Part shown: piece by piece, positions 10,274 through 63,736 of the stretch
Position numbering within the stretch: the stretch's first letter is position 1
Layout: each line of letters begins with the position of its first letter
Virus record (IMG/VR): IMGVR_UViG_3300035208_006521
Location: 1 to 64,000 of that record
Reading direction: 5' to 3' (one strand)
DNA: 64,000 bases
From: a virus
Lineage: Duplodnaviria > Caudoviricetes
The notes under the pieces: model-generated
What the model was told of the DNA's origin: nothing
What the model saw: only the letters and a program-made list of their open reading frames with translations
The model's database searches: none
Position numbers and translations under genes: made by a program

Positions 10274-10301
10274 ATTATATATCCCATGAATTTTTTGTAA
10301 A
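10274..10301 (-). promoter_or_regulatory. Putative promoter of the replication operon, (G)TTTACA-N16-TATAAT
   Basis: Read directly on the minus strand upstream of the 10216 ORF. Confidence 0.6.
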
Positions 10302-10477: not shown

Positions 10478-11299
10478 ATGAAGCAATTAGAAGAAATACT
10501 AGAACAGGTAAATTTCAAGGTCATCAGAGAAAGGATATTTAATCCAGCAAAAAAGGACACCGGGTTCGATACTCTCTACAGAGAAGATACAGGGGACAAT
10601 CTGGGAGTTGTTTCTCGAAATTACGGGTTAGCTACTCACTCTGAAGTTCTAGAAAAAGTAGCGGAAGAATTCAAAAAAAGTAAATTACCGGAAGCACTTC
10701 CACTATATCTTGATTTACCAAAGAACGGGGCGATGATGTTCTTAGAGTTAAGATTTTCGAAAGAATTTAATTTATCGACAAAATCTGACCCTGATTATAT
10801 TTCACCGGGAGCAATAGTAGTTAACTCTTACAACAGAAAATTACAATTTGATCTACAGGGTTTTATTTACAGAGTAGTCTGTTCAAATAAAGCTGTAGTT
10901 AAAGAAAGTTTGTTCCAATACAGAAGCAGACACACAAAAAGACTACTAGTAGACGAACCAGTTAAAAAATTTGTTGAAGTATATCCTAATTTTGAAAAGA
11001 TAGTAATTCCGAGATTATCCCAAATGACAAAAGAAATAGTTCCAGAAAATAAAATACTATCCACACTTGATCAATTTCCGGGATGGATACAGGAAGAAAG
11101 TCTACAATATCTTGCAGAAAGAAAATTCATCACTTATAAGGAAGAAAACAATGAAGTGGAAATCAGCAAAACAGACAAAAAACTTACTGTCTGGGATTTT
11201 GTAAACACTTTCACTTTCGTCCTTACTCATACTGGCTCTGTCTCTACTGAGAGTAGATTAAAATATCTATTTACGTTATCTTCTATTTTCTCCCTTTAG
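10478..11299 (+). CDS. DUF932-family protein
   Basis: LYREDTGDNLGVVSRNY...H, VVNSYN, YRVVCSN pattern. Confidence 0.75.
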   Translation: MKQLEEILEQVNFKVIRERIFNPAKKDTGFDTLYREDTGDNLGVVSRNYGLATHSEVLEKVAEEFKKSKLPEALPLYLDLPKNGAMMFLELRFSKEFNLSTKSDPDYISPGAIVVNSYNRKLQFDLQGFIYRVVCSNKAVVKESLFQYRSRHTKRLLVDEPVKKFVEVYPNFEKIVIPRLSQMTKEIVPENKILSTLDQFPGWIQEESLQYLAERKFITYKEENNEVEISKTDKKLTVWDFVNTFTFVLTHTGSVSTESRLKYLFTLSSIFSL

Positions 11300-11579: not shown

Positions 11580-11602
11580 AAGTTACGAGGTAACATAATA
11601 TA
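11580..11602 (+). promoter_or_regulatory. 23-bp promoter/operator box, copy 1 (GTTAC-N3-GTAAC core)
   Basis: aagttacgaggtaacataatata, identical to 12437-12459. Confidence 0.7.
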
Positions 11603-11636: not shown

Positions 11637-12017
11637 ATGAAAAAAGCATTAAAAAAAGAAGTAAAAAAAGCAGCAGTAAAAAAAGAAGTAAAAGCAGCAG
11701 TAAAAAAAGCAGTAAAAAAAGAAGAAGTAAAAAAAGTAGCAGGTCTGAACAGAACTAAAATCATCCTTGAAAAAGTAGAAAAAGGGGAAACAAGAAAGGC
11801 AATCATCCTGGCTTTAATAGCCCTCAACGAAAAAGAAGGAAAAGAAACCACTCCGAAATCAACAGCAGGCCTAGTAAGCAGAGTCTTCACAAAGTATAAC
11901 CTGACAGGAAAAGTAGAATCCGGAACAGGTAAAAATACCGCAAAGAAAAAGAATCTGAAAATCAAAAAAGAAGAACCTAAAAATAAAAAGAAAGTAGACA
12001 CAAATGAAGAATTCTAA
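11637..12017 (+). CDS. Histone H1-like Lys/Ala-rich DNA-binding protein
   Basis: N-terminal KKEVKKAAVKKEVKAAVKKAVKK repeats, then a short helical domain and a basic tail. Confidence 0.6.
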   Translation: MKKALKKEVKKAAVKKEVKAAVKKAVKKEEVKKVAGLNRTKIILEKVEKGETRKAIILALIALNEKEGKETTPKSTAGLVSRVFTKYNLTGKVESGTGKNTAKKKNLKIKKEEPKNKKKVDTNEEF

Positions 12018-12436: not shown

Positions 12437-12459
12437 AAGTTACGAGGTAACATAATATA
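12437..12459 (+). promoter_or_regulatory. 23-bp promoter/operator box, copy 2
   Basis: Identical to 11580-11602. Confidence 0.7.
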
Positions 12460-12488: not shown

Positions 12489-13037
12489 ATGAAAAAGATA
12501 ATCATTATTTTAATAAGTTTAACTTTCTTTATAGCATGCAGTGAAGTTGAAGAATTAAAAAGCATAGACCCTGATTACGGATTCGAAGATGAAATTCCAG
12601 ATTATGAAAAACAATCGGATTTATTATTCTGGATATCGACTCACCTTTACCACGACGGCGGAAGCAGTAGCTGGCAAACAGCAATTCAGACATGGGACAG
12701 AACTTATCAAGTCTCTGGTAATTCTAAAATATTTCACTTAGGAGATTGTGAAGATGGCGCTATTTTTACCCTTTATTTATTAAGGAAAAAGTTTAATATC
12801 CAGGGATACCTGGTAAGGGTTAGAATAAAAAGAAATGATCATGCCCATGCAATAGCTTACCTAGCAGATACGGATACTTATTTGGAACCTTTCGATCATA
12901 ATCAGTATATCATCCCGGATGTAAATACTGAATATGAAGTAAATGAAATGATTCCATACGGGGAGGCAATGTATATGGCAGAACAAGGACATTACATAAA
13001 GGCAGATCAAAACGATCCTTTACTTGATATTTTCTAA
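12489..13037 (+). CDS. Lipoprotein with transglutaminase-like (LapG/BTLCP-type) Cys protease domain
   Basis: Signal peptide with lipobox FFIAC; GDCEDGA catalytic Cys motif; downstream HAHA. Confidence 0.65.
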   Translation: MKKIIIILISLTFFIACSEVEELKSIDPDYGFEDEIPDYEKQSDLLFWISTHLYHDGGSSSWQTAIQTWDRTYQVSGNSKIFHLGDCEDGAIFTLYLLRKKFNIQGYLVRVRIKRNDHAHAIAYLADTDTYLEPFDHNQYIIPDVNTEYEVNEMIPYGEAMYMAEQGHYIKADQNDPLLDIF

Positions 13038-13067: not shown

Positions 13068-13137
13068 GTGGTTATCCCTTATTTAAGTTACAAGAAAACA
13101 AAATATTTTAACATAATAAAACAAAGGAGAAAAGATT

Positions 13138-13380
13138 ATGATGAATGTAGTAAAAATTTATGGCTACCTTCTTTTAAAAGGTAAAAAAGAACAAGAAAAA
13201 TCAGAGGAAATAATTCTGAAGGGAGAAATTCCGAAAAGATTCGATCCGAAAAGGATAATTTCAGTATCAAAAAATGGGGAAGAAAAAACTCACACTGTAG
13301 TATTTTCAGACGGATACACAAGGACAATAAGAACAAAATCCGCAATAAAAGATTTTTATAAGGAATATTTCCCCTATTAG
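13138..13380 (+). CDS. Hypothetical early protein
   Basis: ORF track; shared leader AGGAGAAAAGATTATG. Confidence 0.7.
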   Translation: MMNVVKIYGYLLLKGKKEQEKSEEIILKGEIPKRFDPKRIISVSKNGEEKTHTVVFSDGYTRTIRTKSAIKDFYKEYFPY

Positions 13381-13858: not shown

Positions 13859-13889
13859 AAGGGAGCTGAATGCTCCCTTTCTTTTTTTG
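13859..13889 (+). terminator. Intrinsic terminator ending the plus-strand island
   Basis: aagggagc-tgaat-gctcccttt plus T7, then GTGG. Confidence 0.85.
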
Positions 13890-13928
13890 TGGTTTTTATA
13901 GCTTCATATTACTAAAGAACTAATAACA

Positions 13929-13961
13929 ACAGCTGGCGTGCATTGATACGTGCAACGTAAA
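13929..13961 (+). repeat. 33-bp GC-rich element, copy 1 (inverted copy at 48596-48628)
   Basis: acagctggcgtgcattgatacgtgcaacgtaaa; 32/33 identical to the reverse complement of 48596-48628. Confidence 0.95.
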
Positions 13962-13978
13962 TTAACAAAAACAATGTT

Positions 13979-14018
13979 AAAAGAAGAGGCTGTACAAGTA
14001 AAAAACCTGTACAGCCTC
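13979..14018 (-). terminator. Intrinsic terminator of the leftward structural operon
   Basis: gaggctgtaca / tgtacagcctc 11-bp stem; TTCTTTT follows on the minus strand. Confidence 0.75.
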
Positions 14019-14054: not shown

Positions 14055-15701
14055 TCATTTATTCCTGATTATCAATAACCTTCTCGGTTTTATATCCCCG
14101 CTTTCTGGGGGTTTTATTATCGCTTGATTTTCAGGTACCAGTGGCATTCCGTCACTCCATATTCCTATATCTGAAAGTGATCTTTCCACTATTTCATATA
14201 ATGTTACCCAATATGCAATCCACTGCAACGGGGTCCATTCTTTGTTACTATTATTTTCTGATTTAAAAAACGGCTGTACTTCTCTTTTAAACTCCGGACT
14301 GTTTTTTAATTTATCGATTATAGTTGCTCTTCTTTCTAATATGGTTGTTGCTGTCCATCTTTTCAAACTCCCTTTTTCGGCTTCCACTTTGTTTAAATAT
14401 TTTGCTATATCTGGTGCTGGCTCTCCTAAAGCATATCTTCTCACTTCTTCTGGGGAATTTTCATCTACGAACAATCCATAAGTTCTTATCATTATTTCCC
14501 TATCTGTTGGTGATAATATTTTCTTCATCCCATCTCTTACAGCATCTTTCACTAATTTCTTTTCTAATTCTACCCATGGGTCCGTTTTATAATGGCCGAC
14601 GGATTGTAGACTCTCGGAATCCAGAATAGAAAGTAGCGTGTCCGAATCTTCTTCTTTACCCAATTGTATATCTAAGCTTGTTATCCCCCTGCTTTGTGCT
14701 CTTTTATTCTTTATTTTTTCAAGAGTCCATTCATAATCTCTTATTGTTTTATGTCCTTCTTCATCAGGTAATGATTTTCTTTTCTTTTCCAGAATTTCCA
14801 ACAATTCCACATCTGAAGGTTCTGACCCTTTTTCTCCTCTTACTTCTTCTATTGTGTCTTTGAAGAACCATAAATATAATTGATCTTTTCCTGAAGCACT
14901 TAAATGTCCCCCACCTCCGCTGCCAACTGCAAGCTTAGCGGCTAAATTTGATTTGAGGAAGGAATTAACATATTGCTCAAATGGAATTTCCTTGTTCTTT
15001 TTATTTTTTAAATATGATAGAGCGGAATTATATACAACAAGAAATGTGTCGTTTATAAGGTCTTTTTCTTCATATCCATAGTTTGCTGCGTTCCATCCCT
15101 TTCTCATCCTGCTTTTATAATATGCACCGGCTATTTTAGAAAATTTTCCCCAATCTTTCATAACCAGGTCTTTAGCTATTTTCATAACTCTTTCATCAGA
15201 GTCCTTATGTTTAATAGCTCTGTCCTCTGTTTTTGTTTCACCTGATTTTTTTCTTTCTAAAGAAGATTGAAACCAAGATTTGTCACTTCTTTCTACTTTG
15301 TCTTTGGGTACATTGGAGGCTACTGTTTTCAGGCCATTAACGGTATACTCAATGTCAAAATGTTCGGGTCCCCTGGAAGATGTTCCATCAGAACCTATTA
15401 CTTTTCCGAAGAATTTCTTTTTAGAAGCACCGGGCAGACTAAAACTGACAAGAGTTCCGGATTTTATTCTACCAAAAGTCGATTTTATTTTTTTACCATA
15501 ACCTGTTGTCAATCCTTGTTTTTCTCTTTCTAAATATTCTTTTTTGTCTTCTTCTGTCTTGAAATATTTTGGCTTTTCAGCATCTATTTTCACTACTAGT
15601 TTTTTTGGTTTTTTTTCTTCTCCGTAATCATAGTGATATTTACCACCTTCCATCCATCTTCTTTTGTATTTTGACCCTGATTTTATTTCTCCTTTTTTCA
15701 T
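14055..15701 (-). CDS. Sigma-70-family factor with an N-terminal head-protein-type tag (putatively virion-packaged)
   Basis: Region 2 (KDLINDTFLVVYNSALSY...FEQYV), region 3 (GSEPSDVELLEIL; TSLDIQLGKEEDSDTLLSIL), region 4 (LSPTDREIMIRTYGL...PDIAKYL). N-terminal IKS-GSKYKRRW..GGKYHYDY tag. Confidence 0.7.
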   Translation of the reverse strand: MKKGEIKSGSKYKRRWMEGGKYHYDYGEEKKPKKLVVKIDAEKPKYFKTEEDKKEYLEREKQGLTTGYGKKIKSTFGRIKSGTLVSFSLPGASKKKFFGKVIGSDGTSSRGPEHFDIEYTVNGLKTVASNVPKDKVERSDKSWFQSSLERKKSGETKTEDRAIKHKDSDERVMKIAKDLVMKDWGKFSKIAGAYYKSRMRKGWNAANYGYEEKDLINDTFLVVYNSALSYLKNKKNKEIPFEQYVNSFLKSNLAAKLAVGSGGGGHLSASGKDQLYLWFFKDTIEEVRGEKGSEPSDVELLEILEKKRKSLPDEEGHKTIRDYEWTLEKIKNKRAQSRGITSLDIQLGKEEDSDTLLSILDSESLQSVGHYKTDPWVELEKKLVKDAVRDGMKKILSPTDREIMIRTYGLFVDENSPEEVRRYALGEPAPDIAKYLNKVEAEKGSLKRWTATTILERRATIIDKLKNSPEFKREVQPFFKSENNSNKEWTPLQWIAYWVTLYEIVERSLSDIGIWSDGMPLVPENQAIIKPPESGDIKPRRLLIIRNK

Positions 15702-15703
15702 AT

Positions 15704-15982
15704 TTATGCCCTCTGTTTTTTGCTTCGAATTATATCAGTTCTTAGCTCTTTATGAGCTTCTTTGTTCTCTTCTTTAAATTTATCAAACTCTGTACATCTT
15801 AAATATTTTTCTGGAAGTTCCAATTTTAAATCAACAACTTCCCGGGAAAGTTCTTTTATGTCTTTAGCTACCCCTTTTATAGAAGTATGTACTTTTCTTA
15901 TACTACCACTTATTACCGTAAAAGCACCGCCAACAAATACTGTTAAGATTATATACTCTACCATTTTTTCTAAATTCACCAT
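15704..15982 (-). CDS. Small single-TM coiled-coil protein (holin-like?)
   Basis: Hydrophobic IILTVFVGGAFTVI followed by a coiled coil. Confidence 0.35.
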   Translation of the reverse strand: MVNLEKMVEYIILTVFVGGAFTVISGSIRKVHTSIKGVAKDIKELSREVVDLKLELPEKYLRCTEFDKFKEENKEAHKELRTDIIRSKKQRA

Positions 15983-23514: not shown

Positions 23515-25008
23515 CTACTTTTTATTAAAGTCAGGTTCTAGTGATATTCTGGCTACATTTTCCAGTTTTCCTATCATATTACCGGATGAATCATATCTAT
23601 ATCCCCGGGAAACACCAATTCTAGTTGTCATTGCTCCCATATAACTCCAGGAATGATCTACGCTTTCTACATAAAATTCTCCATCCAGAAATGATATTCT
23701 TTCCCCTATTTTTGGGTCTTGAATTTGTGAATAATTTTTGTCTTCTGTACCTTGCCAATCAGCATTATTTATAGTGTGTATTGAAATACTGCCGCTATAC
23801 ATTTCATCATTGTGCTGATACCATCTTTTCATCATCCTCGAAAATTCTTTCATTAAAGAATAGGCTTCGGAAAATTGTTCTATTTTGCTCCTGTTAAAAA
23901 ATCTGAATTCTGTTATTAAGGGTCTGTATCCAAACTTTCTTAATTTTTCATCATCTATCTCATATAATTTACCTTTCTTTTCGCCAGGTCCCAATTCTAC
24001 ATCCATAACCATAGCTTTAGTTCTATCTATAACAGAACCAGGCAGGGTACATAAATAAAAACTAAATACATCACTTATAGATGTATTCAAATCAAATTCT
24101 TGTATAACAACAGGCGGAAGAAGGTTAGTTTTTAATAGCTTCCAATCTTGTGGTTCAAAAGGAGCCTGTCTGAAAATTATTTCATAGCCTCCGTCGGATG
24201 ATTTTGCGCTCTTTGGATTCCATCTACCGTACATTTCATTTATTGGAGGTTGAGCAAGCCCTTGCCATAACTCCCATATGCTGTTTTCTCCCCTCTGATA
24301 TAAAGACAGAGTCATGGGATATTTTATGATAAAATTATTTGGGATTCCGGTTTCCAGATCAACAAACTTATCTAATATGGCTCTAACACCTATACCGGCT
24401 GAGTTGCCGGCTGAATCACTTTCCCCTATTTTAAGAGCAAGACCCATGAAGCTTTGATATATTGGCAACAATATAGTTGGTCCCACTTTCGCGCCTTCAT
24501 CCTGGGCCGATGCTAATTTCTTCTGTAGATTTGAGGCTAAGGTGACGGCTGATGGTTGTCCTTGATAGATAGCAGCGTCTATTACCATTTTAAAGGCTGA
24601 TAATAATCCACCTATATTGCTTCCTGTCATAACTATGTTTCTATCGGGTTTTCCATCTTCTGACATTGAAGCAGAATATCCCCTTTGGGTTATATATCCC
24701 ACATATCTCACTACACCAAATTCGATAAAAAATACAAGGTCCATTTCTTTTAATTTATCCATCCAAGTCATTCCTCTATCATCTCTAGAAGGTACTAGTG
24801 ACAGAGTAAAAGAACCTTCTACTGAGGAAATATTCTCTGAAAAATTATAAGATATTAAATCCGTCGATAGCTCGTATTCGGAACCTTTTTTTAATTTAGT
24901 AGAACTGGAAGTAAAACCCACTATATATTTACCATCATAAGAAGCACTTTTAAAATTTGGCCTCCATATTTTTATCTCGAAATCTACTACTCTCCTTTTA
25001 TATTTCAT
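23515..25008 (-). CDS. Baseplate hub protein
   Basis: Position after the tape measure gene; GSFTLSL, EFYVESVDHSW...T.IGVSRG. Confidence 0.65.
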   Translation of the reverse strand: MKYKRRVVDFEIKIWRPNFKSASYDGKYIVGFTSSSTKLKKGSEYELSTDLISYNFSENISSVEGSFTLSLVPSRDDRGMTWMDKLKEMDLVFFIEFGVVRYVGYITQRGYSASMSEDGKPDRNIVMTGSNIGGLLSAFKMVIDAAIYQGQPSAVTLASNLQKKLASAQDEGAKVGPTILLPIYQSFMGLALKIGESDSAGNSAGIGVRAILDKFVDLETGIPNNFIIKYPMTLSLYQRGENSIWELWQGLAQPPINEMYGRWNPKSAKSSDGGYEIIFRQAPFEPQDWKLLKTNLLPPVVIQEFDLNTSISDVFSFYLCTLPGSVIDRTKAMVMDVELGPGEKKGKLYEIDDEKLRKFGYRPLITEFRFFNRSKIEQFSEAYSLMKEFSRMMKRWYQHNDEMYSGSISIHTINNADWQGTEDKNYSQIQDPKIGERISFLDGEFYVESVDHSWSYMGAMTTRIGVSRGYRYDSSGNMIGKLENVARISLEPDFNKK

Positions 25009-40061: not shown

Positions 40062-40772
40062 TTACATTAAAGTCATTACATCATTCGGCAGCGGAATACC
40101 TTTTTGTATTCTACTTTCGAATTTGATGGAATCTTGAATACTTATTTTCCCTTCATTTACCAATTTAGGTAATTTTGAAAGGGCTTCTGATTTGGTCAGA
40201 GATGCTCTCTCTTCTCCGCCTTCAATGGATTTTCTCATTATCTGAATTTTATCCCCTAAAAGGCTTTTCCTGGGTAGAACTGTACCCCCAATAGCTTCCA
40301 TTCTTGTGCTGATTGATTTTACCAGCTTAGCCTGGGCTACTTCCATACCTTCTTTTTTCCTTAAAGATTTTCTCAAATCTTTAATTTCTTCTGCCTGATA
40401 TACCATTGCTTTTGTCAAATCAGTTATCTGATCATCAAGCCTTCTTACCAGACTTTTTAAGAAAGGTGTCACTTCCAGAACATCAGAAGAATCCGGGTCG
40501 GAATTCAGACTGTCTTCGATGGATTTGGAAAGGGCTTCATATTCAGGCTCCCCTGATTTTTGATACTCTTCCTCTTCTTCATCATCTTCATCCTCGTCAA
40601 ATTCTTCATCATCTTCTTCGTTTTCATCTTCGTCGAAGTCTTTTTTGACAACTTTCTTTTTTTTCTTGTCAGCTTTAGAGAGGTCTTCTAAAGCCACATC
40701 CAGAGCCTTTTCCAGCTCTTCACTAGTGGCTTCTTCTAACTCTTCTCCAGCCAATTTCTTTAGTTTGTCCAT
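40062..40772 (-). CDS. Scaffolding protein
   Basis: Between protease and MCP genes; acidic tract, coiled coil, many [LFM]xK[SA] motifs. Confidence 0.75.
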   Translation of the reverse strand: MDKLKKLAGEELEEATSEELEKALDVALEDLSKADKKKKKVVKKDFDEDENEEDDEEFDEDEDDEEEEEYQKSGEPEYEALSKSIEDSLNSDPDSSDVLEVTPFLKSLVRRLDDQITDLTKAMVYQAEEIKDLRKSLRKKEGMEVAQAKLVKSISTRMEAIGGTVLPRKSLLGDKIQIMRKSIEGGEERASLTKSEALSKLPKLVNEGKISIQDSIKFESRIQKGIPLPNDVMTLM

Positions 40773-40792: not shown

Positions 40793-41563
40793 TTAGTTTT
40801 TAAAAAGAAACTTTTGAACCATTAAATTTTTTAGTGGTTTATACAAATGAGTTGCTCCTTGAAATTCAAGGTAATCCTGAAAATCATCTTCGCTTCTTAT
40901 ATCCCCGCTTTTAATTCTCATCAGAAGTTCATTTATTACGGGCTGGACTTCAACATTGTTTGCTCCCTGTAGGCTTTCAGGACTTAACGCTCTACCCCCT
41001 GTAAACATGGAAGAATCAACTCCGGAACCTAACATCAGAGCTTTAGTAAAAGCTCCAAAAGGGATAAGACTCACTTTACCCAAAGTTGATGCATTTGTCG
41101 GTTTATAAGTGACTGCTGTTTCATCCCATATAACCTGGGTTATCCCAGATAGGGCTTTATTCAATGATACCCTTTTCTTTACATAACCACCAATTGAAGC
41201 TCCTAGGCGAGATGATTGAGCTTTTAGTAATCTTACAACCGCATCTGCAAATTCTACTCCTTTGTAAAGTTTGCCTTTTACAAATGTCCTGTTTTCCTTG
41301 AAACCTACGTCCTGTGGTTCACCTATTATATACTTTGGTGACTTTTCCAATTTATGTAAATGGTCCCAAGAAATAACTCCACCCTTCAAATAATCTTCAG
41401 CCTGTTCCTGTAATGCTTTCATGAATACTATTTCCCTGGATTTATCTCTTTCCTCGTTTGAGGCTTCCAGAAATACAGTGTAAGCATCGTTGGGGTCTGA
41501 CTTAATGATGATTTGTCCCATTGGAGAATAAAAAGGGTCAAAGTTTTCTAGATTTTCTCTCAT
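40793..41563 (-). CDS. Prohead protease
   Basis: EASNEERDKSREIV, ISWDH, IIGEP, FVKGKLY, GASIGG, TAVTYKPTN. Confidence 0.85.
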   Translation of the reverse strand: MRENLENFDPFYSPMGQIIIKSDPNDAYTVFLEASNEERDKSREIVFMKALQEQAEDYLKGGVISWDHLHKLEKSPKYIIGEPQDVGFKENRTFVKGKLYKGVEFADAVVRLLKAQSSRLGASIGGYVKKRVSLNKALSGITQVIWDETAVTYKPTNASTLGKVSLIPFGAFTKALMLGSGVDSSMFTGGRALSPESLQGANNVEVQPVINELLMRIKSGDIRSEDDFQDYLEFQGATHLYKPLKNLMVQKFLFKN

Positions 41564-41865: not shown

Positions 41866-43428
41866 TTACCACTTATTCCCGTCCGGGTCGTTTCCCTTCA
41901 TCCATTTTAAACTTATCCCGTTGGCTATATCTTTCATAGTTCCAAAATCACTTGCGTCGCATTCACCTGCTTCGACATCGGTTTTATAGCCCTGGGCCAA
42001 TGCCTTCATTGTTCCTTCATCCGTCTTTTTGAAAAATACTGTGAATCCTTTTTTGTTTGTTACAAGCAAATTGTTTCCATCCACTTCTACATCTTTAAAG
42101 CCCGCTTTTTTGAATTTATCACTAATATCTGTAATGCTGGTTTTTTTATCTTTTTCAGCTTTATCTTTTTTGGCAGGCATTTTTTTCGACCTGAGTTGGC
42201 TATCAGGATATTGGGGGTTGGATATAAATTTGTCATCTTTCTTTTTGTCTTGTTGCATAAATTCACTTGCATCCATCAACATAGCATTTAACACCATATC
42301 TTTTTCTTCTTTTAAAAAGTTTTCTTCGCCGCCATAAACCATTTTCATATACTTCCCAAAACTTACATCATCCACATCCATTGAATCCGGGTCTGTAAAA
42401 ATTTCTAATAACTCTTTCCTTTTATCCTCTGTACTCATGTTGTCAGATTTTCCTTCTTCTCCCGCATCTGAATAGAATTCTTTATATTCTTTTTCTACCT
42501 TTTTATCCGACCATCCTCTTATTTTTGTCTCTTCTTCGGCCGCCGTCAATTCTTTTATGGCTTCTTTTTCATATTCTTTTAGATTTTTCGGTCTCCAGCC
42601 TGCTTTTAAGGCATTCTGGATGCTTGATCTTTCTTCTTTACTTGCTTTTCCTGCTCCCAAAAATGAAGCCAATTCAATTCCGGACATACCTGATCCTTTC
42701 TTACTTAAACCACTTCCATCAGCCCTGCCCTTACCAGGACCTGCACCTCTGCCATAAGGACCCGTTCCATCCCGTTTTTCTACGCCGAATTTTTTACTTT
42801 CTGTTTCTTTACTACCGGATGTTCTTCCTTTTTTCTCCTTGTATACATATTTATAATTGCCCTTGGTACCTTCCCTGCGGAGATATTTTGCTTTTAGCAT
42901 TTCTCCTTCTGACATATTTTTTGTTCTGATTTTTAAAGCTTTTTTTAAGCTACTCAATTTATTCTCCCAATTTATCCCTGTGCTTATACTAGTCAGTTCT
43001 ATCAATTTTAGAACTTTTGCGACACGTCCTCTCCACGCATCCTTTCCATAAGTTTCATCTAACCTATTTTTTAGATATCTCTTCCACTTATCCTCAAAAT
43101 GATTATCCACAAGATTTTTATAACCATGTCTTACATATGCTGGCAGACTTTTGAATTCTTCGGAAGCCATAACACCCTGGGCTACTTTTCTCATGGCCAT
43201 TACTTTGCTCCCAAAATCTTCTTCATATTGACGGTCACTATCACCATTCCCCTTATTTCTAGTCCCAACCCTGTTGGCGGTATTTTTTTGTTCTTTGATA
43301 TCCTCTTTTGATAAATGTTTTTCTCCCGATCCCTTATAAGTATACTTATAATGACCAGGTCCACCTTCTCTCTTGATATATTTAGCTTTTAATAATCTCT
43401 CCTCTAAAGCCTCTTTTAAGTTATTCAT
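41866..43428 (-). CDS. Tagged K/E-rich putative internal head protein (two LKAKY tags)
   Basis: RLLKAKYIKREGGPGHYKYTY and EMLKAKYLRREGTKGNYKYVY. Confidence 0.6.
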   Translation of the reverse strand: MNNLKEALEERLLKAKYIKREGGPGHYKYTYKGSGEKHLSKEDIKEQKNTANRVGTRNKGNGDSDRQYEEDFGSKVMAMRKVAQGVMASEEFKSLPAYVRHGYKNLVDNHFEDKWKRYLKNRLDETYGKDAWRGRVAKVLKLIELTSISTGINWENKLSSLKKALKIRTKNMSEGEMLKAKYLRREGTKGNYKYVYKEKKGRTSGSKETESKKFGVEKRDGTGPYGRGAGPGKGRADGSGLSKKGSGMSGIELASFLGAGKASKEERSSIQNALKAGWRPKNLKEYEKEAIKELTAAEEETKIRGWSDKKVEKEYKEFYSDAGEEGKSDNMSTEDKRKELLEIFTDPDSMDVDDVSFGKYMKMVYGGEENFLKEEKDMVLNAMLMDASEFMQQDKKKDDKFISNPQYPDSQLRSKKMPAKKDKAEKDKKTSITDISDKFKKAGFKDVEVDGNNLLVTNKKGFTVFFKKTDEGTMKALAQGYKTDVEAGECDASDFGTMKDIANGISLKWMKGNDPDGNKW

Positions 43429-43766
43429 TCTGTTTCTCCTAAATGGTTTAATTTGGCGGCTTCAACAGATTCGGAAGCCATATTGATAGTATTCTCTAAC
43501 AATGATCTATCATGTAACAACTTCATATAACTGAATTTTTTATCCTCATATTCTTCATCCATTTCTTTGCCTGAAGTATAAGGCTCTAATTCTCTTCCCT
43601 TTTTTTCTATCCTACCTTTTAATATTTTCAAATGCTTCTGGGCAGCTTCCATTATTGCTTCTTGTTCTTTTATTATCCCCCTTATATAAACTTTTCCTTT
43701 TGCATAAGCATTATTGAGTTTGTTTATATCTTTCTCTGTTATTCTTTTTGTTGATTGTAAGTTCAT
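43425..43766 (-). CDS. Hypothetical protein
   Basis: ORF track; coupled on both sides. Confidence 0.6.
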   Translation of the reverse strand: MNLQSTKRITEKDINKLNNAYAKGKVYIRGIIKEQEAIMEAAQKHLKILKGRIEKKGRELEPYTSGKEMDEEYEDKKFSYMKLLHDRSLLENTINMASESVEAAKLNHLGETE

Positions 43767-45523
43767 TTGTTTTCTTCCTTTGCAAATTTTTTATAAAATC
43801 TTATTTCACTACCCATTTTGGAATAATCATACCATTCTCCTGTATGATAATCCATTGCTTTTTTATCCCGCTTTATTTTAATTTTCGTATTTGCCAAGGG
43901 CCCGTGTTCAAATTCAATTATATCCCCCACTTTCGGATCAGAGTCGTGGAGTTTGAATATAGGTGTTTCTTTTCCGGGTTTTGCTTCCTCCGCATAAACC
44001 TGTACCCAGTCATCATTATAATCCCCAGTCTGTTGGGTATATATATTTGTCAGCTTGTCTAACCCTTTTTGTTTTATATAGCTTCTTACCCATGCTTCTG
44101 CTGATTTTTCAGACGTACTCTTGAATGTAAAAGCCATACTACCTTCTCCGGCGTCTATATAATCGGGTATATTGCTTCTTGGTACTCTATCACTATCGCC
44201 TCTTTTTTGATAGTCATCATTAGCATACTGGGAATAATCCGTCTTTTTAGATTCTTTCTTCGATTCTGTTTTAACTACTAGCTTAGGCTGTTCGATTGGT
44301 GCTGGGGTTAAATTATTTATATCCCTGTTTTCTGAATTGAATTCACCCAACTCTATAGAACCATAACCTCCACCGCCCATTACTTTAGAAGGTGGGGTTA
44401 ATTCCTTAACACTAAACCCACTTCCTCTTAAATCATTAACGATTGAATTAAATCTATCGGTTGATATACCGTGAAATCCTATCCTTTTGGGGTTATATTT
44501 ATCTATTTCATAACTATTGCCGGAAGAATGTGTCCAGCCTCTTATAGCGGTCCCCGTGACTTTAGTCACTTCCAGTCCATATTTATGAAATATATCCTTT
44601 GCGAGTTTCAGATTCAAATCTTCGTACTTCATTTTTCTCTCGAATTTTTCAAGCTCTCTCCTGGCATTTTCAAAAACTTTTAATCCTTGTTTTTTTCTTC
44701 TTGCTGGAATTTCCATATAAAATTTCCGGGCACTTTCTATTCTATCATTAAGCATTTTCCTTTGTCTTTCCCTTTCATCTTCGCCTGTCTTTTTTATCAC
44801 TAGTTTTTTTTCTTTTGGTTTTTGTATGTCGCCTGCAGCCGGTACTCCAATCTGGGGTGTTGCTTGATAATTACTTATATATTCCCTTGCCTTTACATAC
44901 TGGGTTCCTTCAGGTCCTAGCATTATCTCTTTTGCTTTTTCTACTCCCATTTCTTTCACATATTCATGGAAATTTTCTTTCGCTTTTTTGACTGCTTCTA
45001 TTTCCCTCTGACTGAGTGACTTTTTTTCAGCTAATTCATCGATTTTACTTTGGTAATATTCAACTCTTTCCCATGCATGTTTTTTATTATCTTCTGTTTC
45101 CCCGGTATCATTTGCTATGTTCCTGAAATGTTCTTTCTTTTCTTCCCATGGTTTTATCTGTTCATCGAAAGAAAGTTCTTTTGACGCTAAATTTGCTTCA
45201 GTCCATCCTGCAAGCCATTCTTTCATCATCCCTGCGGAGCTACTTCCTACTTTTTTACCTTTTATCTGTTCCATCAAATCATAATCTCTGGCAGGAATTG
45301 CCATTTTTCCTTCCTTAAATGCTTTTCTACCCATTTCCCTGGCTTGCTGGGTTGATATATTCTTTGTTGTACCCTGTTCCTTCTTGTCACTACCGGTTTT
45401 CGCTTTTTGTCCTGCTTTACCGACATATTTCCATCCAGTGGCAGTTTTCTGATATTTTCTACCACTATATTCTTTTATTGTTCCGTTGGGTACTGCTTTT
45501 GCTTTTAATAATATGAGTCTCAT
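43763..45523 (-). CDS. Tagged multidomain putative internal head protein
   Basis: N-terminal MRLILLKAKAVPNGTIKEYSGRKYQKTATGW. Confidence 0.6.
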   Translation of the reverse strand: MRLILLKAKAVPNGTIKEYSGRKYQKTATGWKYVGKAGQKAKTGSDKKEQGTTKNISTQQAREMGRKAFKEGKMAIPARDYDLMEQIKGKKVGSSSAGMMKEWLAGWTEANLASKELSFDEQIKPWEEKKEHFRNIANDTGETEDNKKHAWERVEYYQSKIDELAEKKSLSQREIEAVKKAKENFHEYVKEMGVEKAKEIMLGPEGTQYVKAREYISNYQATPQIGVPAAGDIQKPKEKKLVIKKTGEDERERQRKMLNDRIESARKFYMEIPARRKKQGLKVFENARRELEKFERKMKYEDLNLKLAKDIFHKYGLEVTKVTGTAIRGWTHSSGNSYEIDKYNPKRIGFHGISTDRFNSIVNDLRGSGFSVKELTPPSKVMGGGGYGSIELGEFNSENRDINNLTPAPIEQPKLVVKTESKKESKKTDYSQYANDDYQKRGDSDRVPRSNIPDYIDAGEGSMAFTFKSTSEKSAEAWVRSYIKQKGLDKLTNIYTQQTGDYNDDWVQVYAEEAKPGKETPIFKLHDSDPKVGDIIEFEHGPLANTKIKIKRDKKAMDYHTGEWYDYSKMGSEIRFYKKFAKEENK

Positions 45524-47880: not shown

Positions 47881-48558
47881 CTATAACTCCTTCAAATATT
47901 TTTCCGGGTAATGATCTAGCGGATTGCCTACTATCTTCAACCATGGGAGCAATAATAATTCCCAACCAAAAGTTGCTCCTAGTCTTAATGTCTTGCTTAT
48001 ATGCATAAAACCCATCCATAATGTTGGGACTTTTGTTACCATGTCTTCTTTATATACAAATCTTCTGGAAATTATTCTTCTTCTCCTAAAATCTCTTACA
48101 AATGATCTATTACCCACTCTTGGAGAACCAAAAGTGATACAGATCACTTCCTTGCCCCCTGCAGTTATCATGGAATAGAAATAAGCATGAAGAACCGCAA
48201 GGGCTGCCCCTAAACTATGGCCCGTAAAGATAACACTTTCTTTACCCCTTTTGATTATTTTTTCGAATACTTCTATTTTTGAAACTTGATACTGTCTAAA
48301 AAAACCTTCATGAACTTTTATCCTTTTTTCGGTTGTTCTTATCTTCTTGAAATTCAAATTATCATACCAATCAAGCTTGCCATGAGAGCCCTGGAAGACA
48401 ACTACTGTATGTTTTCCGTAATCTCCTATCATGTATTCTGTGTGTCCTATTTTACAAACTTCAACATTTTCCATAACTTCTTTGACTTTTCCATGATGGC
48501 CGTTATAAGAATTTACGCATGCCTGGCACATATTCCTTATTGTCATTGCTGTTAACAT
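47881..48558 (-). CDS. Class 3 lipase / alpha-beta hydrolase
   Basis: VVFQGS, VHEGFF, FTGHSLGAALA, ITFGSPRVGN, DMVTKVP, DH. Confidence 0.9.
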   Translation of the reverse strand: MLTAMTIRNMCQACVNSYNGHHGKVKEVMENVEVCKIGHTEYMIGDYGKHTVVVFQGSHGKLDWYDNLNFKKIRTTEKRIKVHEGFFRQYQVSKIEVFEKIIKRGKESVIFTGHSLGAALAVLHAYFYSMITAGGKEVICITFGSPRVGNRSFVRDFRRRRIISRRFVYKEDMVTKVPTLWMGFMHISKTLRLGATFGWELLLLPWLKIVGNPLDHYPEKYLKEL

Positions 48559-48595: not shown

Positions 48596-48628
48596 TTTAC
48601 GTTGCACGTACCAATGCACGCCAGCTGT
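48596..48628 (-). repeat. 33-bp GC-rich element, copy 2 (inverted relative to 13929-13961)
   Basis: Reverse complement is acagctggcgtgcattggtacgtgcaacgtaaa. Confidence 0.95.
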
Positions 48629-48632
48629 GTTT

Positions 48633-50272: not shown

Positions 50273-50330
50273 TTCTTTTTCTTTTCGGTTTAATTATATC
50301 CGATTTTCTTAATCTAATTATTAACTTCAT
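50247..50330 (-). CDS. 27-aa tag-bearing mini-ORF, out of frame with the 49814 ORF
   Basis: MKLIIRLRKSDIIKPKRKRNEYPWQYR; ATG overlaps the upstream TAA (TAATG). Confidence 0.5.
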   Translation of the reverse strand: MKLIIRLRKSDIIKPKRKRNEYPWQYR

Positions 50331-50779
50331 TATGCTGTCATTCTCTTATCTGGGTAATGTCTTTCCATCGTGCTTACGAATCTACTATAAACTGCCCTTG
50401 CCATTTGTTTGTCCGGCATGTTCAGATTTACTAACTTTTTAACATAATTATATGCGTCATCATGTGAAGCACCTGCCACTTTTTTCTTTCTGAAAACTTT
50501 AAACATTAAATCTTCATGGGCTGAATACTCTCTATCTACTGTTTTGTTTTCCCCTGTCTTACCTGTTACTCCTATTTCAGCCCCCTTTCTTTCAGGCTTT
50601 TCATCAGCCGAGCCTTTCTTGCTTCCAACGGGCTCTTTGTATATGTATTTGTTACCCTCCTTTCTTATATATTTAGCTTTTAGAAGACTTTCCCTTAAAT
50701 CTTTTCTCATTGCTTTCTCAAGACTTTCAGTCCAGTTGATTCTTTCACATAATGCTTTTTCCAACTTATTCATATCCAA
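50330..50779 (-). CDS. Tagged putative internal head protein
   Basis: LEKAL, LEKAM, SLLKAKYIRKEGNKYIY. Confidence 0.6.
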   Translation of the reverse strand: MDMNKLEKALCERINWTESLEKAMRKDLRESLLKAKYIRKEGNKYIYKEPVGSKKGSADEKPERKGAEIGVTGKTGENKTVDREYSAHEDLMFKVFRKKKVAGASHDDAYNYVKKLVNLNMPDKQMARAVYSRFVSTMERHYPDKRMTA

Positions 50780-56819: not shown

Positions 56820-57101
56820 TCATTCCCCTTCTATTATAAATTTTTTTTCTTTTCTGGATATTCTTATTCTTCCGATTTTCTTTATATACTTGAAACTACT
56901 TAAATTACATTCTATAAATTCTTCCCTCTTTTTTCCTCTCAACTTAGCTACTCTTACCCATATAATTATATCCCTCAATAAAGGATGAATTTTTGTTCTT
57001 ATACAAATATTTAGAATCACAAATTCACTTTTTCCATCCGCGTTTATCATTTCTACTATATCACCTGGTCTTATAAAAGAATCTACTTTTATCTTTTTCA
57101 T
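56820..57101 (-). CDS. Hypothetical protein (SH3/KOW-like start)
   Basis: IRPGDIVEM. Confidence 0.5.
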   Translation of the reverse strand: MKKIKVDSFIRPGDIVEMINADGKSEFVILNICIRTKIHPLLRDIIIWVRVAKLRGKKREEFIECNLSSFKYIKKIGRIRISRKEKKFIIEGE

Positions 57102-57182
57102 TTGTTTTATACCTTTGTTTTACTATGTTTTTATTGTTTATACCATTGCACGTTTGTGCACGTTGCTTAGTGATTTATTGTC

Positions 57183-62902: not shown

Positions 62903-63328
62903 TTATTTCTTAAGCTCCTTATATATTTTTACCGCTCCATAACCTATACCTACAGTCAATGCTGCCCCTATACCGATTCCTAATCCTATTTTCCATCTAC
63001 CGGATTTAATCGTATATCTTACCTCGGCACTTTGAGTAAATTCCCTTTGATATAAATTCCCCTTTATTTCCATATTCAAAGTATTTCCTTTCTGCTCTAA
63101 TGTTTTCCACTCTATCTTGAAAGGGTCATTATCATAATGCCATAAATGTATTTTCATTTCTTCGCAGGTAACATCTACGGGTCTTTTGACTGGTTTTGAA
63201 ACAACAGGTTTTGGAGCTGGGGGAATAACAGGCTTATTCATATAATTATATACGGCCGCTCCACCTAAAAGAGCGGCCAATATAATTGAAGCAAACCAAC
63301 TTAATGCTATCACCCCATTTTTTGTCAT
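62903..63328 (-). CDS. Membrane protein with N- and C-terminal TM segments
   Basis: WFASIILAALLGGAAVY and IGLGIGIGAALTVGIGY. Confidence 0.55.
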   Translation of the reverse strand: MTKNGVIALSWFASIILAALLGGAAVYNYMNKPVIPPAPKPVVSKPVKRPVDVTCEEMKIHLWHYDNDPFKIEWKTLEQKGNTLNMEIKGNLYQREFTQSAEVRYTIKSGRWKIGLGIGIGAALTVGIGYGAVKIYKELKK

Positions 63329-63669
63329 TGTATTACCTGTATATACTTTCTTAAATATTCAATTTCTTTTTCTGATGTAAAATGGGAAGAAATACCTAGC
63401 TCTATTCTTTCCCTGATATACCCAAGGTCTTTCCTAAGCCTTTCCGTTATAATGGGCCTCAGAAGAATCCTCTCTATTATATTTAGAGCTTCGTAACTGG
63501 CTCCTAGATTGCCTTTATACTTCTTCCAATTGACTGTTATGCAACTTCCTTCTGATCTGCTTTCCATCCTCTGCTTTATTTGTTTTTTTTCTCCTTCAAT
63601 CTTTCTGAGTTCCTCCTTTTGTTTTGCTCTCTTTTTTTTGTCATTTACTACTTCTGATAATTTTTTCAT
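63325..63669 (-). CDS. Hypothetical protein
   Basis: ORF track. Confidence 0.55.
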   Translation of the reverse strand: MKKLSEVVNDKKKRAKQKEELRKIEGEKKQIKQRMESRSEGSCITVNWKKYKGNLGASYEALNIIERILLRPIITERLRKDLGYIRERIELGISSHFTSEKEIEYLRKYIQVIQ

Positions 63670-63736
63670 TTAAAGCCTCCTGTTTATTATTGTTAATAAT
63701 ATATTTTGTAATTGTGTAACTTAAATTTGGGCAATA

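Follow-up and report, generated by a model that had tools for sequence, protein, structure and literature searches.

A sigma-70-like protein with a head-protein tag at the end of a phage structural operon: a candidate virion-delivered sigma factor

The stretch of DNA analysed here, hereafter the window, comprises positions 1 to 64,000 of IMG/VR record IMGVR_UViG_3300035208_006521, the complete 81,412-bp record of an uncultured virus (Caudoviricetes). The assembly is circular, since the 108-nt overlap of its ends falls within a DNA polymerase gene. Nearly all genes of the phage lie on the minus strand of the window, and one of them, the open reading frame (ORF) at 14055-15701, is a real gene whose product of 548 amino acids (aa) resembles sigma factors. 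This sigma gene closes a long run of structural genes, its product starts with a hairpin tag shared with proteins encoded close to the head genes, and a conserved promoter-like box precedes small genes located beyond it. The gene and the terminator that follows it are:

14055..15701, minus strand: sigma-like protein, whole ORF; 548 aa, isoelectric point (pI) 9.4, with a pI of 9.5-9.8 in homologues
13986..14018, minus strand: intrinsic terminator at the end of the structural transcription unit; 14-bp stem and T run, folding energy (dG) -24.7 kcal/mol, z -7.1

An earlier, sequence-only reading of this stretch had taken the sigma gene for the last of the late structural operon, and the map upholds this position. 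Gaps between genes do not exceed 49 nt throughout the minus-strand run from 26750 to 14055, along which baseplate and fibre genes are followed by the gene of a 92-aa membrane protein and finally by the sigma gene, with the terminator right after it. The sigma gene lies ~23 kb away from the capsid gene and past the tail-fibre genes, yet inside the late structural run. Upstream of it, no promoter-like site rose above background, and a search for enriched k-mers in minus-strand intergenic regions returned ribosome-binding sites only, with no late-promoter motif. Late co-transcription of the sigma gene with the fibre genes would be the simplest reading.

Beyond the terminator lies the sole plus-strand island (~10.4-13.9 kb), composed of small genes, each with a separate terminator, and then come DnaC-, DnaB- and DnaG-like genes. 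Parts of this order recur in related phages: fibres then sigma in L001 and L004; sigma, followed by a DUF932 gene and the replication genes, in L001, L003 and L005; and, in a 51-kb relative (G001), the entire layout, where the converging island has eight small genes. No second sigma factor was found in the genome, by searches that included PF04542. The beta subunit of a multisubunit RNA polymerase was not found in the complete genome either, a result that says nothing on a T7-type polymerase, and use of the host polymerase is therefore implied.

The product of ORF 14055-15701 very probably belongs to the sigma-70 family, as a very divergent member. Pfam returns Sigma70_r3 only (E 0.27, 11.8 bits for a cut-off of 25.3), the NCBIfam RpoD models match residues 322-413 at E 1e-3 with 18 and 15 bits for cut-offs above 350, and a family profile searched against the Protein Data Bank (PDB) gave no sigma match. 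When the family profile was aligned with hhalign to an alignment of Escherichia coli RpoS, RpoD (C-terminal part), FliA and RpoH, residues 173-419 matched residues 88-289 of RpoS colinearly, with a probability of 92.5% and E 4.7e-7. A Foldseek search with an AlphaFold model, whose predicted local distance difference test (pLDDT) is 60, returned sigma-70-family chains for all of the top 50 PDB matches (best E 3e-4). With VIA, residues 166-262 align to the sigma2 domain of sigma-28 (Z 9.0, root-mean-square deviation (rmsd) 2.9, 84 aa) and residues 166-480 to residues 366-613 of E. coli sigma70. In the ESM Atlas, the protein falls with sigma-70 clusters (0.95) by features, and with sigma clusters only by structure.

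The alignments set conserved motifs of the family against those of known sigma factors. D-L-K-Q-E aligns with the core-binding D-L-I-Q-E-G-N of region 2.2, and F-x-x-Y-V-K-S-F-L-K with F-S-T-Y-A-T-W-W-I-R of region 2.3/2.4, the Tyr being kept and the Trp pair replaced by Ser and Phe; region 4 is represented by Y-G-L-F-V, then by a helix-turn-helix with an insertion. Regions 2, 3 and 4, which had been described as clear on first reading, are thus present according to hhalign, Foldseek, VIA and the ESM Atlas, but they are anything but clear to curated models, which are nearly blind to them. The three parts are:

14916..15206, minus strand: sigma2-like domain, residues ~166-262; D-L-K-Q-E (2.2-like) and F-x-x-Y-V-K-S-F-L-K (2.3/2.4-like), from VIA and hhalign
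14577..14915, minus strand: sigma3-like region, residues ~263-375, limits approximate; holds S-G-x-G-G-H-L-K-x-S-x-K-D-Q-L-Y-L-W-F-F-K, the most conserved block of the family, from NCBIfam and hhalign
14271..14576, minus strand: sigma4-like region, residues ~376-477; Y-G-L-F-V (4.1-like) and helix-turn-helix with insertion, from VIA and hhalign

Some 165 additional residues, tag included, precede the sigma regions, as the sequence-only reading had noticed; they are conserved in every homologue. It had likewise pointed out F-F-K-S after region 4, which indeed stands at residues 478-481; nine of ten homologues conserve F-x-K-[SA] there, and the tenth has MTKS. Outside the sigma core, the protein is made of the following parts:

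15624..15692, minus strand: N-terminal tag, residues 4-26, G-x-x-K-S-G-S-K-Y-K-R-R-..-G-K-Y-H-Y-D-Y; predicted beta-hairpin with strands 14-18 and 21-25
15474..15623, minus strand: disordered Lys/Pro-rich linker and short helix, residues 27-76; pLDDT below 50 at 30-44 and 65-75
15279..15473, minus strand: SH3-type small beta-barrel of the Tudor/KOW type, residues 77-141, from VIA structure matches
14259..14270, minus strand: F-F-K-S, residues 478-481; matches hydrophobic-x-K/[AS] (the slash marks the cut) in a low-confidence linker (pLDDT below 50), a candidate head-protease site
14058..14258, minus strand: C-terminal extension, residues 482-548; acidic (pI 5.25, for 9.4 in the whole protein), with a conserved amphipathic helix at 491-512

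The barrel superposes on NusG KOW domains with Z 7.9-8.5 and rmsd 1.8-2.0 over 55-56 aa (18-20% identity), and on Tudor domains with Z 7-8.8, the PHF1 Tudor domain scoring 8.8. Such barrels bind RNA polymerase in NusG, RfaH and PcrA, and by analogy residues 77-141 might do so here. Hidden Markov models of the barrel and of the C-terminal extension retrieved no paralogues in the genome.

The tag is basic and tyrosine-rich, and is predicted to form a hairpin of the type K-Y-x-x-[KR]-..-G-x-[YW]-x-Y-x-Y at the very start of the protein, as in a cargo module. Its residues K7, Y12 and K21 are invariant in the family, W22, Y24 and Y26 nearly so, and in the models the hairpin stands apart from the barrel with the disordered linker between them. 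When a pattern built on nothing but the sigma family is applied to the rest of the 25,000-residue proteome, it matches twice, both times in the protein encoded at 41866, for an expectation of 0.0135; a looser pattern also reaches the protein at 50330 (three matches, 0.31 expected, P 0.0025). A match of the tag to these two proteins had been proposed at the outset. The sharing is confirmed, but the attribution was wrong: both tags quoted belong to the 41866 protein, and the 50330 protein has a shortened copy. A longer variant, in which a leader is followed by G-T-I-K-x-Y-S-G-[RK]-x-Y-x-K-T-x-x-G-W, starts four head-proximal proteins, namely a 586-aa protein, a PARP-like ADP-ribosyltransferase (ART), a 319-aa protein and a 100-aa protein. 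In all, the tag heads six proteins of the head-proximal block (41.8-50.8 kb), of which four are located as follows:

41866..43428, minus strand: 520-aa head-proximal protein; two copies of cut site plus tag, at 43336-43383 and 42841-42888
43763..45523, minus strand: 586-aa protein; N-terminal leader and tag (MRLILLKAKAVPNGTIKEYSGRKY..), close to the N-terminus of the sigma homologue of L001
46203..47879, minus strand: PARP-like ADP-ribosyltransferase; same leader and tag at the N-terminus
50330..50779, minus strand: 149-aa protein; shortened tag at 50639-50674

Exchange of the tag extends to the sigma family itself. The sigma homologue of L001 has a long leader (MLILEKGKALPEGTIKEW..), and its N-terminus, MLILEKGKALPEGTIKEWKGKKYKKTGGKW, closely resembles that of the 586-aa protein, MRLILLKAKAVPNGTIKEYSGRKYQKTATGW; one sigma homologue bears the full leader and tag of the PARP-like ART of the window phage, and the homologue P0007 has MIMFKS ahead of the tag. 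From the swaps of tag variants in L001 and P0007, it follows that the sigma family bears interchangeable versions of the same cargo header. Further afield, a profile of the tag, which is so short that its search of the G001 genome missed a known copy, retrieves proteins with ART-PolyVal, InPase, NUDIX, Kinase-PolyVal, Zeta-toxin, ADPrib_exo_Tox and Phage_Mu_F domains. Many of these tag-bearing polyvalent proteins have two or three copies with hydrophobic-x-K-A before each; a protein found by the sigma family profile (P0018) has three, around ParB-like and ART modules. The window phage itself encodes an InPase-SNF2 polyvalent protein. As the tag sits after the cut sites, it would remain on the mature cargo and would not be a removable targeting peptide of the T4 type.

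The hydrophobic-x-K/[AS] motif is a reasonable candidate, on its distribution in protein sequences, for the head-protease or maturation motif of this phage. The scaffold (40062-40772, minus strand, 236 aa) has nine sites for 1.03 expected (P 1.4e-6), the head protease (40793-41563, minus strand, 256 aa) six for 1.1 expected, and the capsid protein has LLK/A at residues 22-25, a pattern that would fit a maturation protease cutting after Lys; the HK97 protease cuts after this residue. Trimming of the sigma protein at K-S sites, as the sequence-only reading supposed, must be restricted accordingly. The ORF starts with M-K-K-G-E-I-K-S, which has Glu at P3, so that no fitting cut site directly precedes the tag, and the K of EIKS looks like part of the tag fold, because the aligned position reads TIKE or TVKT in tag variants. 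Most homologues have G-T-x-K-A before the tag, and a leader whose site fits is seen only in the L001 homologue and in P0007. This leaves F-x-K/[SA] at 478-481 as the only credible, though predicted, cut site.

The second conserved element is a promoter-like box. In a gap-free alignment of 11 sites from two phages, AAGTT-N8-ACA-N-AATA is invariant, and the window has four exact copies:

11580..11600, plus strand: promoter-like box AAGTT-N8-ACA-N-AATA upstream of cassette gene 11637-12017
12437..12457, plus strand: the same box upstream of cassette gene 12489-13037
13085..13105, plus strand: the same box upstream of cassette gene 13138-13380
63702..63722, minus strand: the same box upstream of gene 63325-63669

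Allowing one mismatch brought no further box in the window, for a chance expectation of 1.37. With eight exact boxes in G001, four in L003, three in L005 and six in L010, five sigma-bearing phages have 25; all of these stand in the correct orientation upstream of a ribosome-binding site and ATG, often directly past the T run of a terminator, and none precedes structural genes. Canonical TTTACA-N16/17-TATAAT promoters exist separately (at 10301, 56439 and 66408), which would make the box a second promoter class. The sigma protein is the obvious candidate reader, because the box is conserved across unrelated cassette genes that adjoin the sole conserved gene of transcription-factor type. Two other descriptions of these sites were discarded: the box is not a canonical -35 element with a downstream -10, since no -10 lies at 16-18 nt, and GTTAC-N3-GTAAC, a palindrome of two cassettes that relatives do not conserve, gave way to the asymmetric box. 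At one site of G001 (23990-24000; L017 3980-4000, minus strand), an exact box overlaps a canonical TTTACA-N17-TATAAT promoter, TACA of the box forming the end of the -35 hexamer; this may be a dual-class promoter.

Several genes and elements around the sigma gene and the island deserve mention in their own right. The 92-aa protein encoded directly upstream of the sigma gene (15704-15982, minus strand, 2-nt gap) combines one N-terminal transmembrane helix with a charged coiled-coil tail and looks like a holin or a spanin; no family matches it, and relatives have no homologue at that position. In the island, a DUF932 protein is encoded at 10478-11299 (plus strand). This family is typical of the leading regions of conjugative elements, and its gene adjoins replication genes in L001, L003 and L005; as its strand relative to the sigma gene varies between phages, the DUF932 block has been inverted. 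The 126-aa cassette protein (11637-12017, plus strand) has an Ala/Lys/Val/Glu repeat in its N-terminal third (KKAAVKKEVKAAVKKAVKKEE), resembling histone H1 and bacterial nucleoid proteins, and has short homologues in the corresponding island of L001 and L005. A small plus-strand ORF, from 13672 to ~13830, starts with MTKEEYFKK.. and encodes fewer than 60 aa; with a ribosome site, GGAGAAAAGAT-ATG, like that of other cassettes and its own terminator (13859-13879), it stretches the island nearly to the terminator of the sigma gene. Just past that terminator stands an element of ~32 nt, CAGCTGGCGTGCATTG-N-TACGTGCAACGTAAA (13920-13955, plus strand), of which an inverted second copy lies at 48602-48632 (minus strand), upstream of gene 47881-48558. 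Together, both long copies make up an inverted repeat extending across the entire structural module, and a related pair of ACGTGCA repeats is found at 57146-57163 (minus strand), upstream of gene 56820-57101. The element could be an operator or a recombination site.

The family to which the sigma protein belongs is small. Ten full-length homologues, with 40-48% identity, were found in a collection of 5.8 billion proteins, and an exhaustive profile search of 1.84 billion cluster representatives retrieved about a dozen family proteins plus two matched through the tag alone, with no untagged relative among these representatives. All members come from metagenomic or viral contigs (~12 contigs). 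No relative was detected by tblastn in 50,697 phage records, PHROGs has no match, and the PDB gave nothing relevant by sequence or by profile. One homologue, accompanied by the six exact boxes mentioned above, lies on an 8.3-kb contig (L010, BPTK01000156.1) deposited in a metagenome-assembled genome of 'Candidatus Heimdallarchaeota'; the ribosome sites and terminators of bacterial type, together with the sigma gene, point to a phage contig in the wrong bin. An archaeal host was rejected, as Shine-Dalgarno sites and intrinsic terminators occur on the contigs, replication genes of the DnaB/DnaC/DnaG/DnaE type in the window phage, and a sigma gene in both. Even if packaging were to fail as an explanation, the family is a new, very divergent sigma-70 branch with an added Tudor/KOW-like domain and a candidate cognate promoter.

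The interpretation that we tentatively favour, plausible in our view if somewhat short of probable, is that of a sigma factor that is packaged, injected and able to redirect the host core polymerase. We infer, as follows, that the protein is expressed late, packaged, cleaved and injected, and that it is the sigma that pairs with the box. The protein would be synthesised late, together with the baseplate and fibre proteins, and loaded into the procapsid through its tag, as would the tagged enzymes encoded beside the head genes; the head protease may trim it at F-x-K/S (K480), and it would leave the particle along with the DNA. In the next cell, it would join the host core RNA polymerase and drive transcription of the small cassette genes that bear the box. 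Delivery by the virion is proposed because a sigma factor that is made last is most useful in the next cell, and because the sole recognisable address of the protein is otherwise found on head-associated and polyvalent proteins. A more elaborate version, which we regard as doubtful, would make the packaged protein a pro-sigma: the cut at F-x-K/S would remove the acidic C-terminal segment and activate the factor, which would then capture the host core for the immediate-early, unusual promoters of the cassettes, in a phage without an RNA polymerase of its own. If this version were true, it would be the first injected sigma factor and, next to packaged polymerases and modification of the Alt type, a third way to control the first minute of infection.

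Phages are known to get their first genes transcribed in three ways: through strong host-type promoters, through injected whole polymerases (N4, phiKZ), and through injected modifiers of the host polymerase (T4 Alt). An injected sigma that borrows the host core would be a fourth answer. It would also give the widespread, unnamed hairpin tag its first cargo with an easily assayed activity, making a role in capsid loading directly testable, and the conserved AAGTT-N8-ACA-N-AATA box is a concrete template on which sigma activity can be tested.

A number of observations weigh against virion delivery of a sigma factor. As regards the protein, the cut-offs of curated Pfam and NCBIfam sigma-70 models are not reached, and confidence in the structure models is modest (pLDDT 60 and 67). 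As regards packaging, the sigma gene lies outside the head-morphogenesis neighbourhood where a cargo module would be looked for, and the tag, which begins at residue 4, lacks a removable leader. With two sites for 2.4 expected, the sigma protein shows no excess of the protease motif, and one copy, FLK[AS] at residues 248-251, is an invariant part of sigma2; the chain leading from tag to packaging is drawn from gene neighbourhood and analogy. As regards the box, AAGTT lies ~9 nt from the -10-like CAnAAT, which misfits the sigma2/sigma4 spacing of an ordinary sigma70; L004 has a box with one mismatch only, and L009 has none in ~1.5 kb downstream. The pairing of box and sigma is a co-occurrence, and the reader of the box could also be a shared host factor or a different phage protein. 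Finally, a near-consensus host-type promoter (10301-10274) already precedes the replication genes, so that an injected sigma is not obviously needed.

These points can be accommodated in other ways. The protein might be an ordinary phage sigma that is never packaged and acts in the same cycle, either very late on the box cassettes or on structural genes through unrecognised promoters, the tag having a cytoplasmic role. Same-cycle action is the norm for phage sigmas (T4 gp55, SPO1 gp28 and gp33/34, phiEco32 gp36), the sigma transcript of Listeria phage CKA15 peaks at middle times (PMC12282133), and ORF 14055-15701 encodes no cleavable leader. We nevertheless find this unlikely, if deserving of serious attention: a late-gene sigma whose gene comes last in the late run and has no detected promoter would face a bootstrapping problem, the upstream regions of structural genes lack the box, and the cassettes, with their own terminators, resemble early accessory genes (for DUF932, a Lys-rich DNA-binding-like protein and a lipoprotein). 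Moreover, the tag is otherwise limited to head-proximal and polyvalent proteins. In another reading, the tag is an evolutionary leftover: the sigma module would once have belonged to a polyvalent protein or have recombined with one, and the hairpin would have another role, in folding or as the P' side of a disused site, and so be uninformative on location. In polyvalent proteins the tag follows each cut site and could therefore serve protease recognition instead of being an address, and few residues precede it in the sigma protein. Against this, which makes a leftover improbable, the key residues have stayed invariant in homologues that are only 40-48% identical overall, two family members carry different complete variants of leader and tag, indicating ongoing exchange of a working module, and the hairpin is modelled as a unit held away from the barrel by the disordered linker.

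A different possibility is that the protein is packaged and injected but is not a promoter-specificity factor, acting instead as a decoy of the core polymerase for host shut-off, or as a DNA-bound internal or pilot protein. The strongly basic character of the whole family (pI 9.4-9.8, unlike most sigmas), the loss of the Trp residues of region 2.3 (W433 to S and W434 to F in the hhalign register) and the additional binding functions suggested by the tag and the Tudor/KOW barrel would all suit such a role. It is set against the colinear retention of sigma2, sigma3 and sigma4, the conservation of D-L-K-Q-E, the putative core-binding motif, of Y244 (Y430 in sigma70) and of a basic recognition helix, and the co-occurrence of the sigma gene with a conserved promoter-like box, and we give it little credence. 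That the protein is no sigma at all, and that a helical protein resembles one by chance, is very improbable: Pfam, PHROGs and the PDB profile search gave no significant sigma match, and VIA Z values of 8-9 are in a range common among helical proteins, but four independent methods agree on sigma-70, colinearly over ~250-310 residues.

Comparison with known systems shows which elements of the proposed virion-delivered sigma have precedents. Phage sigma factors described so far belong to early or middle genes, act within one cycle and carry no cargo tag. The window protein shares with T4 gp55, SPO1 gp28 and gp33/34 and phiEco32 gp36 the sigma-70 domains that would retarget the host core polymerase; in contrast to them, it is encoded at the close of a tail-fibre operon, its sigma core is accompanied by a polyvalent-type tag, a C-terminal extension and a Tudor/KOW-like barrel, and it is too divergent for the Pfam sigma models. 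RpoD-like sigmas have also been reported in group 2 jumbo phages (PMC7824862). For packaging, the closest parallel is T4, whose late-made Alt and IPI-III proteins enter the prohead by means of a short N-terminal signal, undergo processing by the head protease and are injected; Alt modifies the host RNA polymerase at the start of infection (PMC9958956, PMC9026906). Here the cargo would be a sigma factor and not an ADP-ribosyltransferase. Moreover, the T4 capsid-targeting signal is cleaved off, whereas the hairpin of the tagged proteins lies past the predicted cut site and would stay; the sigma ORF has no removable leader, so that in this protein as well the tag would be retained. The tag is the same as in polyvalent proteins, for which packaging and injection are predicted; the study on these proteins (Iyer et al. 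2017, PMC5512222) mentions neither a sigma nor such a tag. The sigma protein differs from polyvalent proteins in being a single-function 'solo' module encoded far from the head genes.

The sequence-only reading held that packaged transcription factors are mostly whole polymerases. This stands with one addition, a sigma in the virion of Salmonella phage Arash, whose particles contain, by virion proteomics, the annotated sigma Gp10 along with RNA polymerase beta and beta' (PMC10585845); a sigma detected in particle preparations of the Twort-like phage fRuSau02 was considered a contaminant (PMC5618024). The N4 virion polymerase, the phiKZ-type virion polymerase and the Arash set resemble the proposed system as transcription proteins that are made late and carried by the virion for the first genes, but they bring a whole polymerase, whereas the sigma of the window phage would have to capture the host core. 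We know of no phage shown to inject a sigma that takes over the host core enzyme. The possible activation by cleavage recalls pro-sigma-E and pro-sigma-K of Bacillus subtilis, which are inactive until dedicated membrane proteases remove an N-terminal pro-sequence; in the phage protein, the extension is C-terminal, F-x-K/[SA] lies between sigma4 and the acidic tail, and the protease would be the head-maturation protease. Phage sigmas, packaged polymerases and T4 Alt being already known, the proposed protein is a combination of a sigma factor and a capsid cargo of known kinds; what is new here is the barrel at residues 77-141, the conserved F-x-K-[SA] after region 4 and the non-canonical box of the cassettes.

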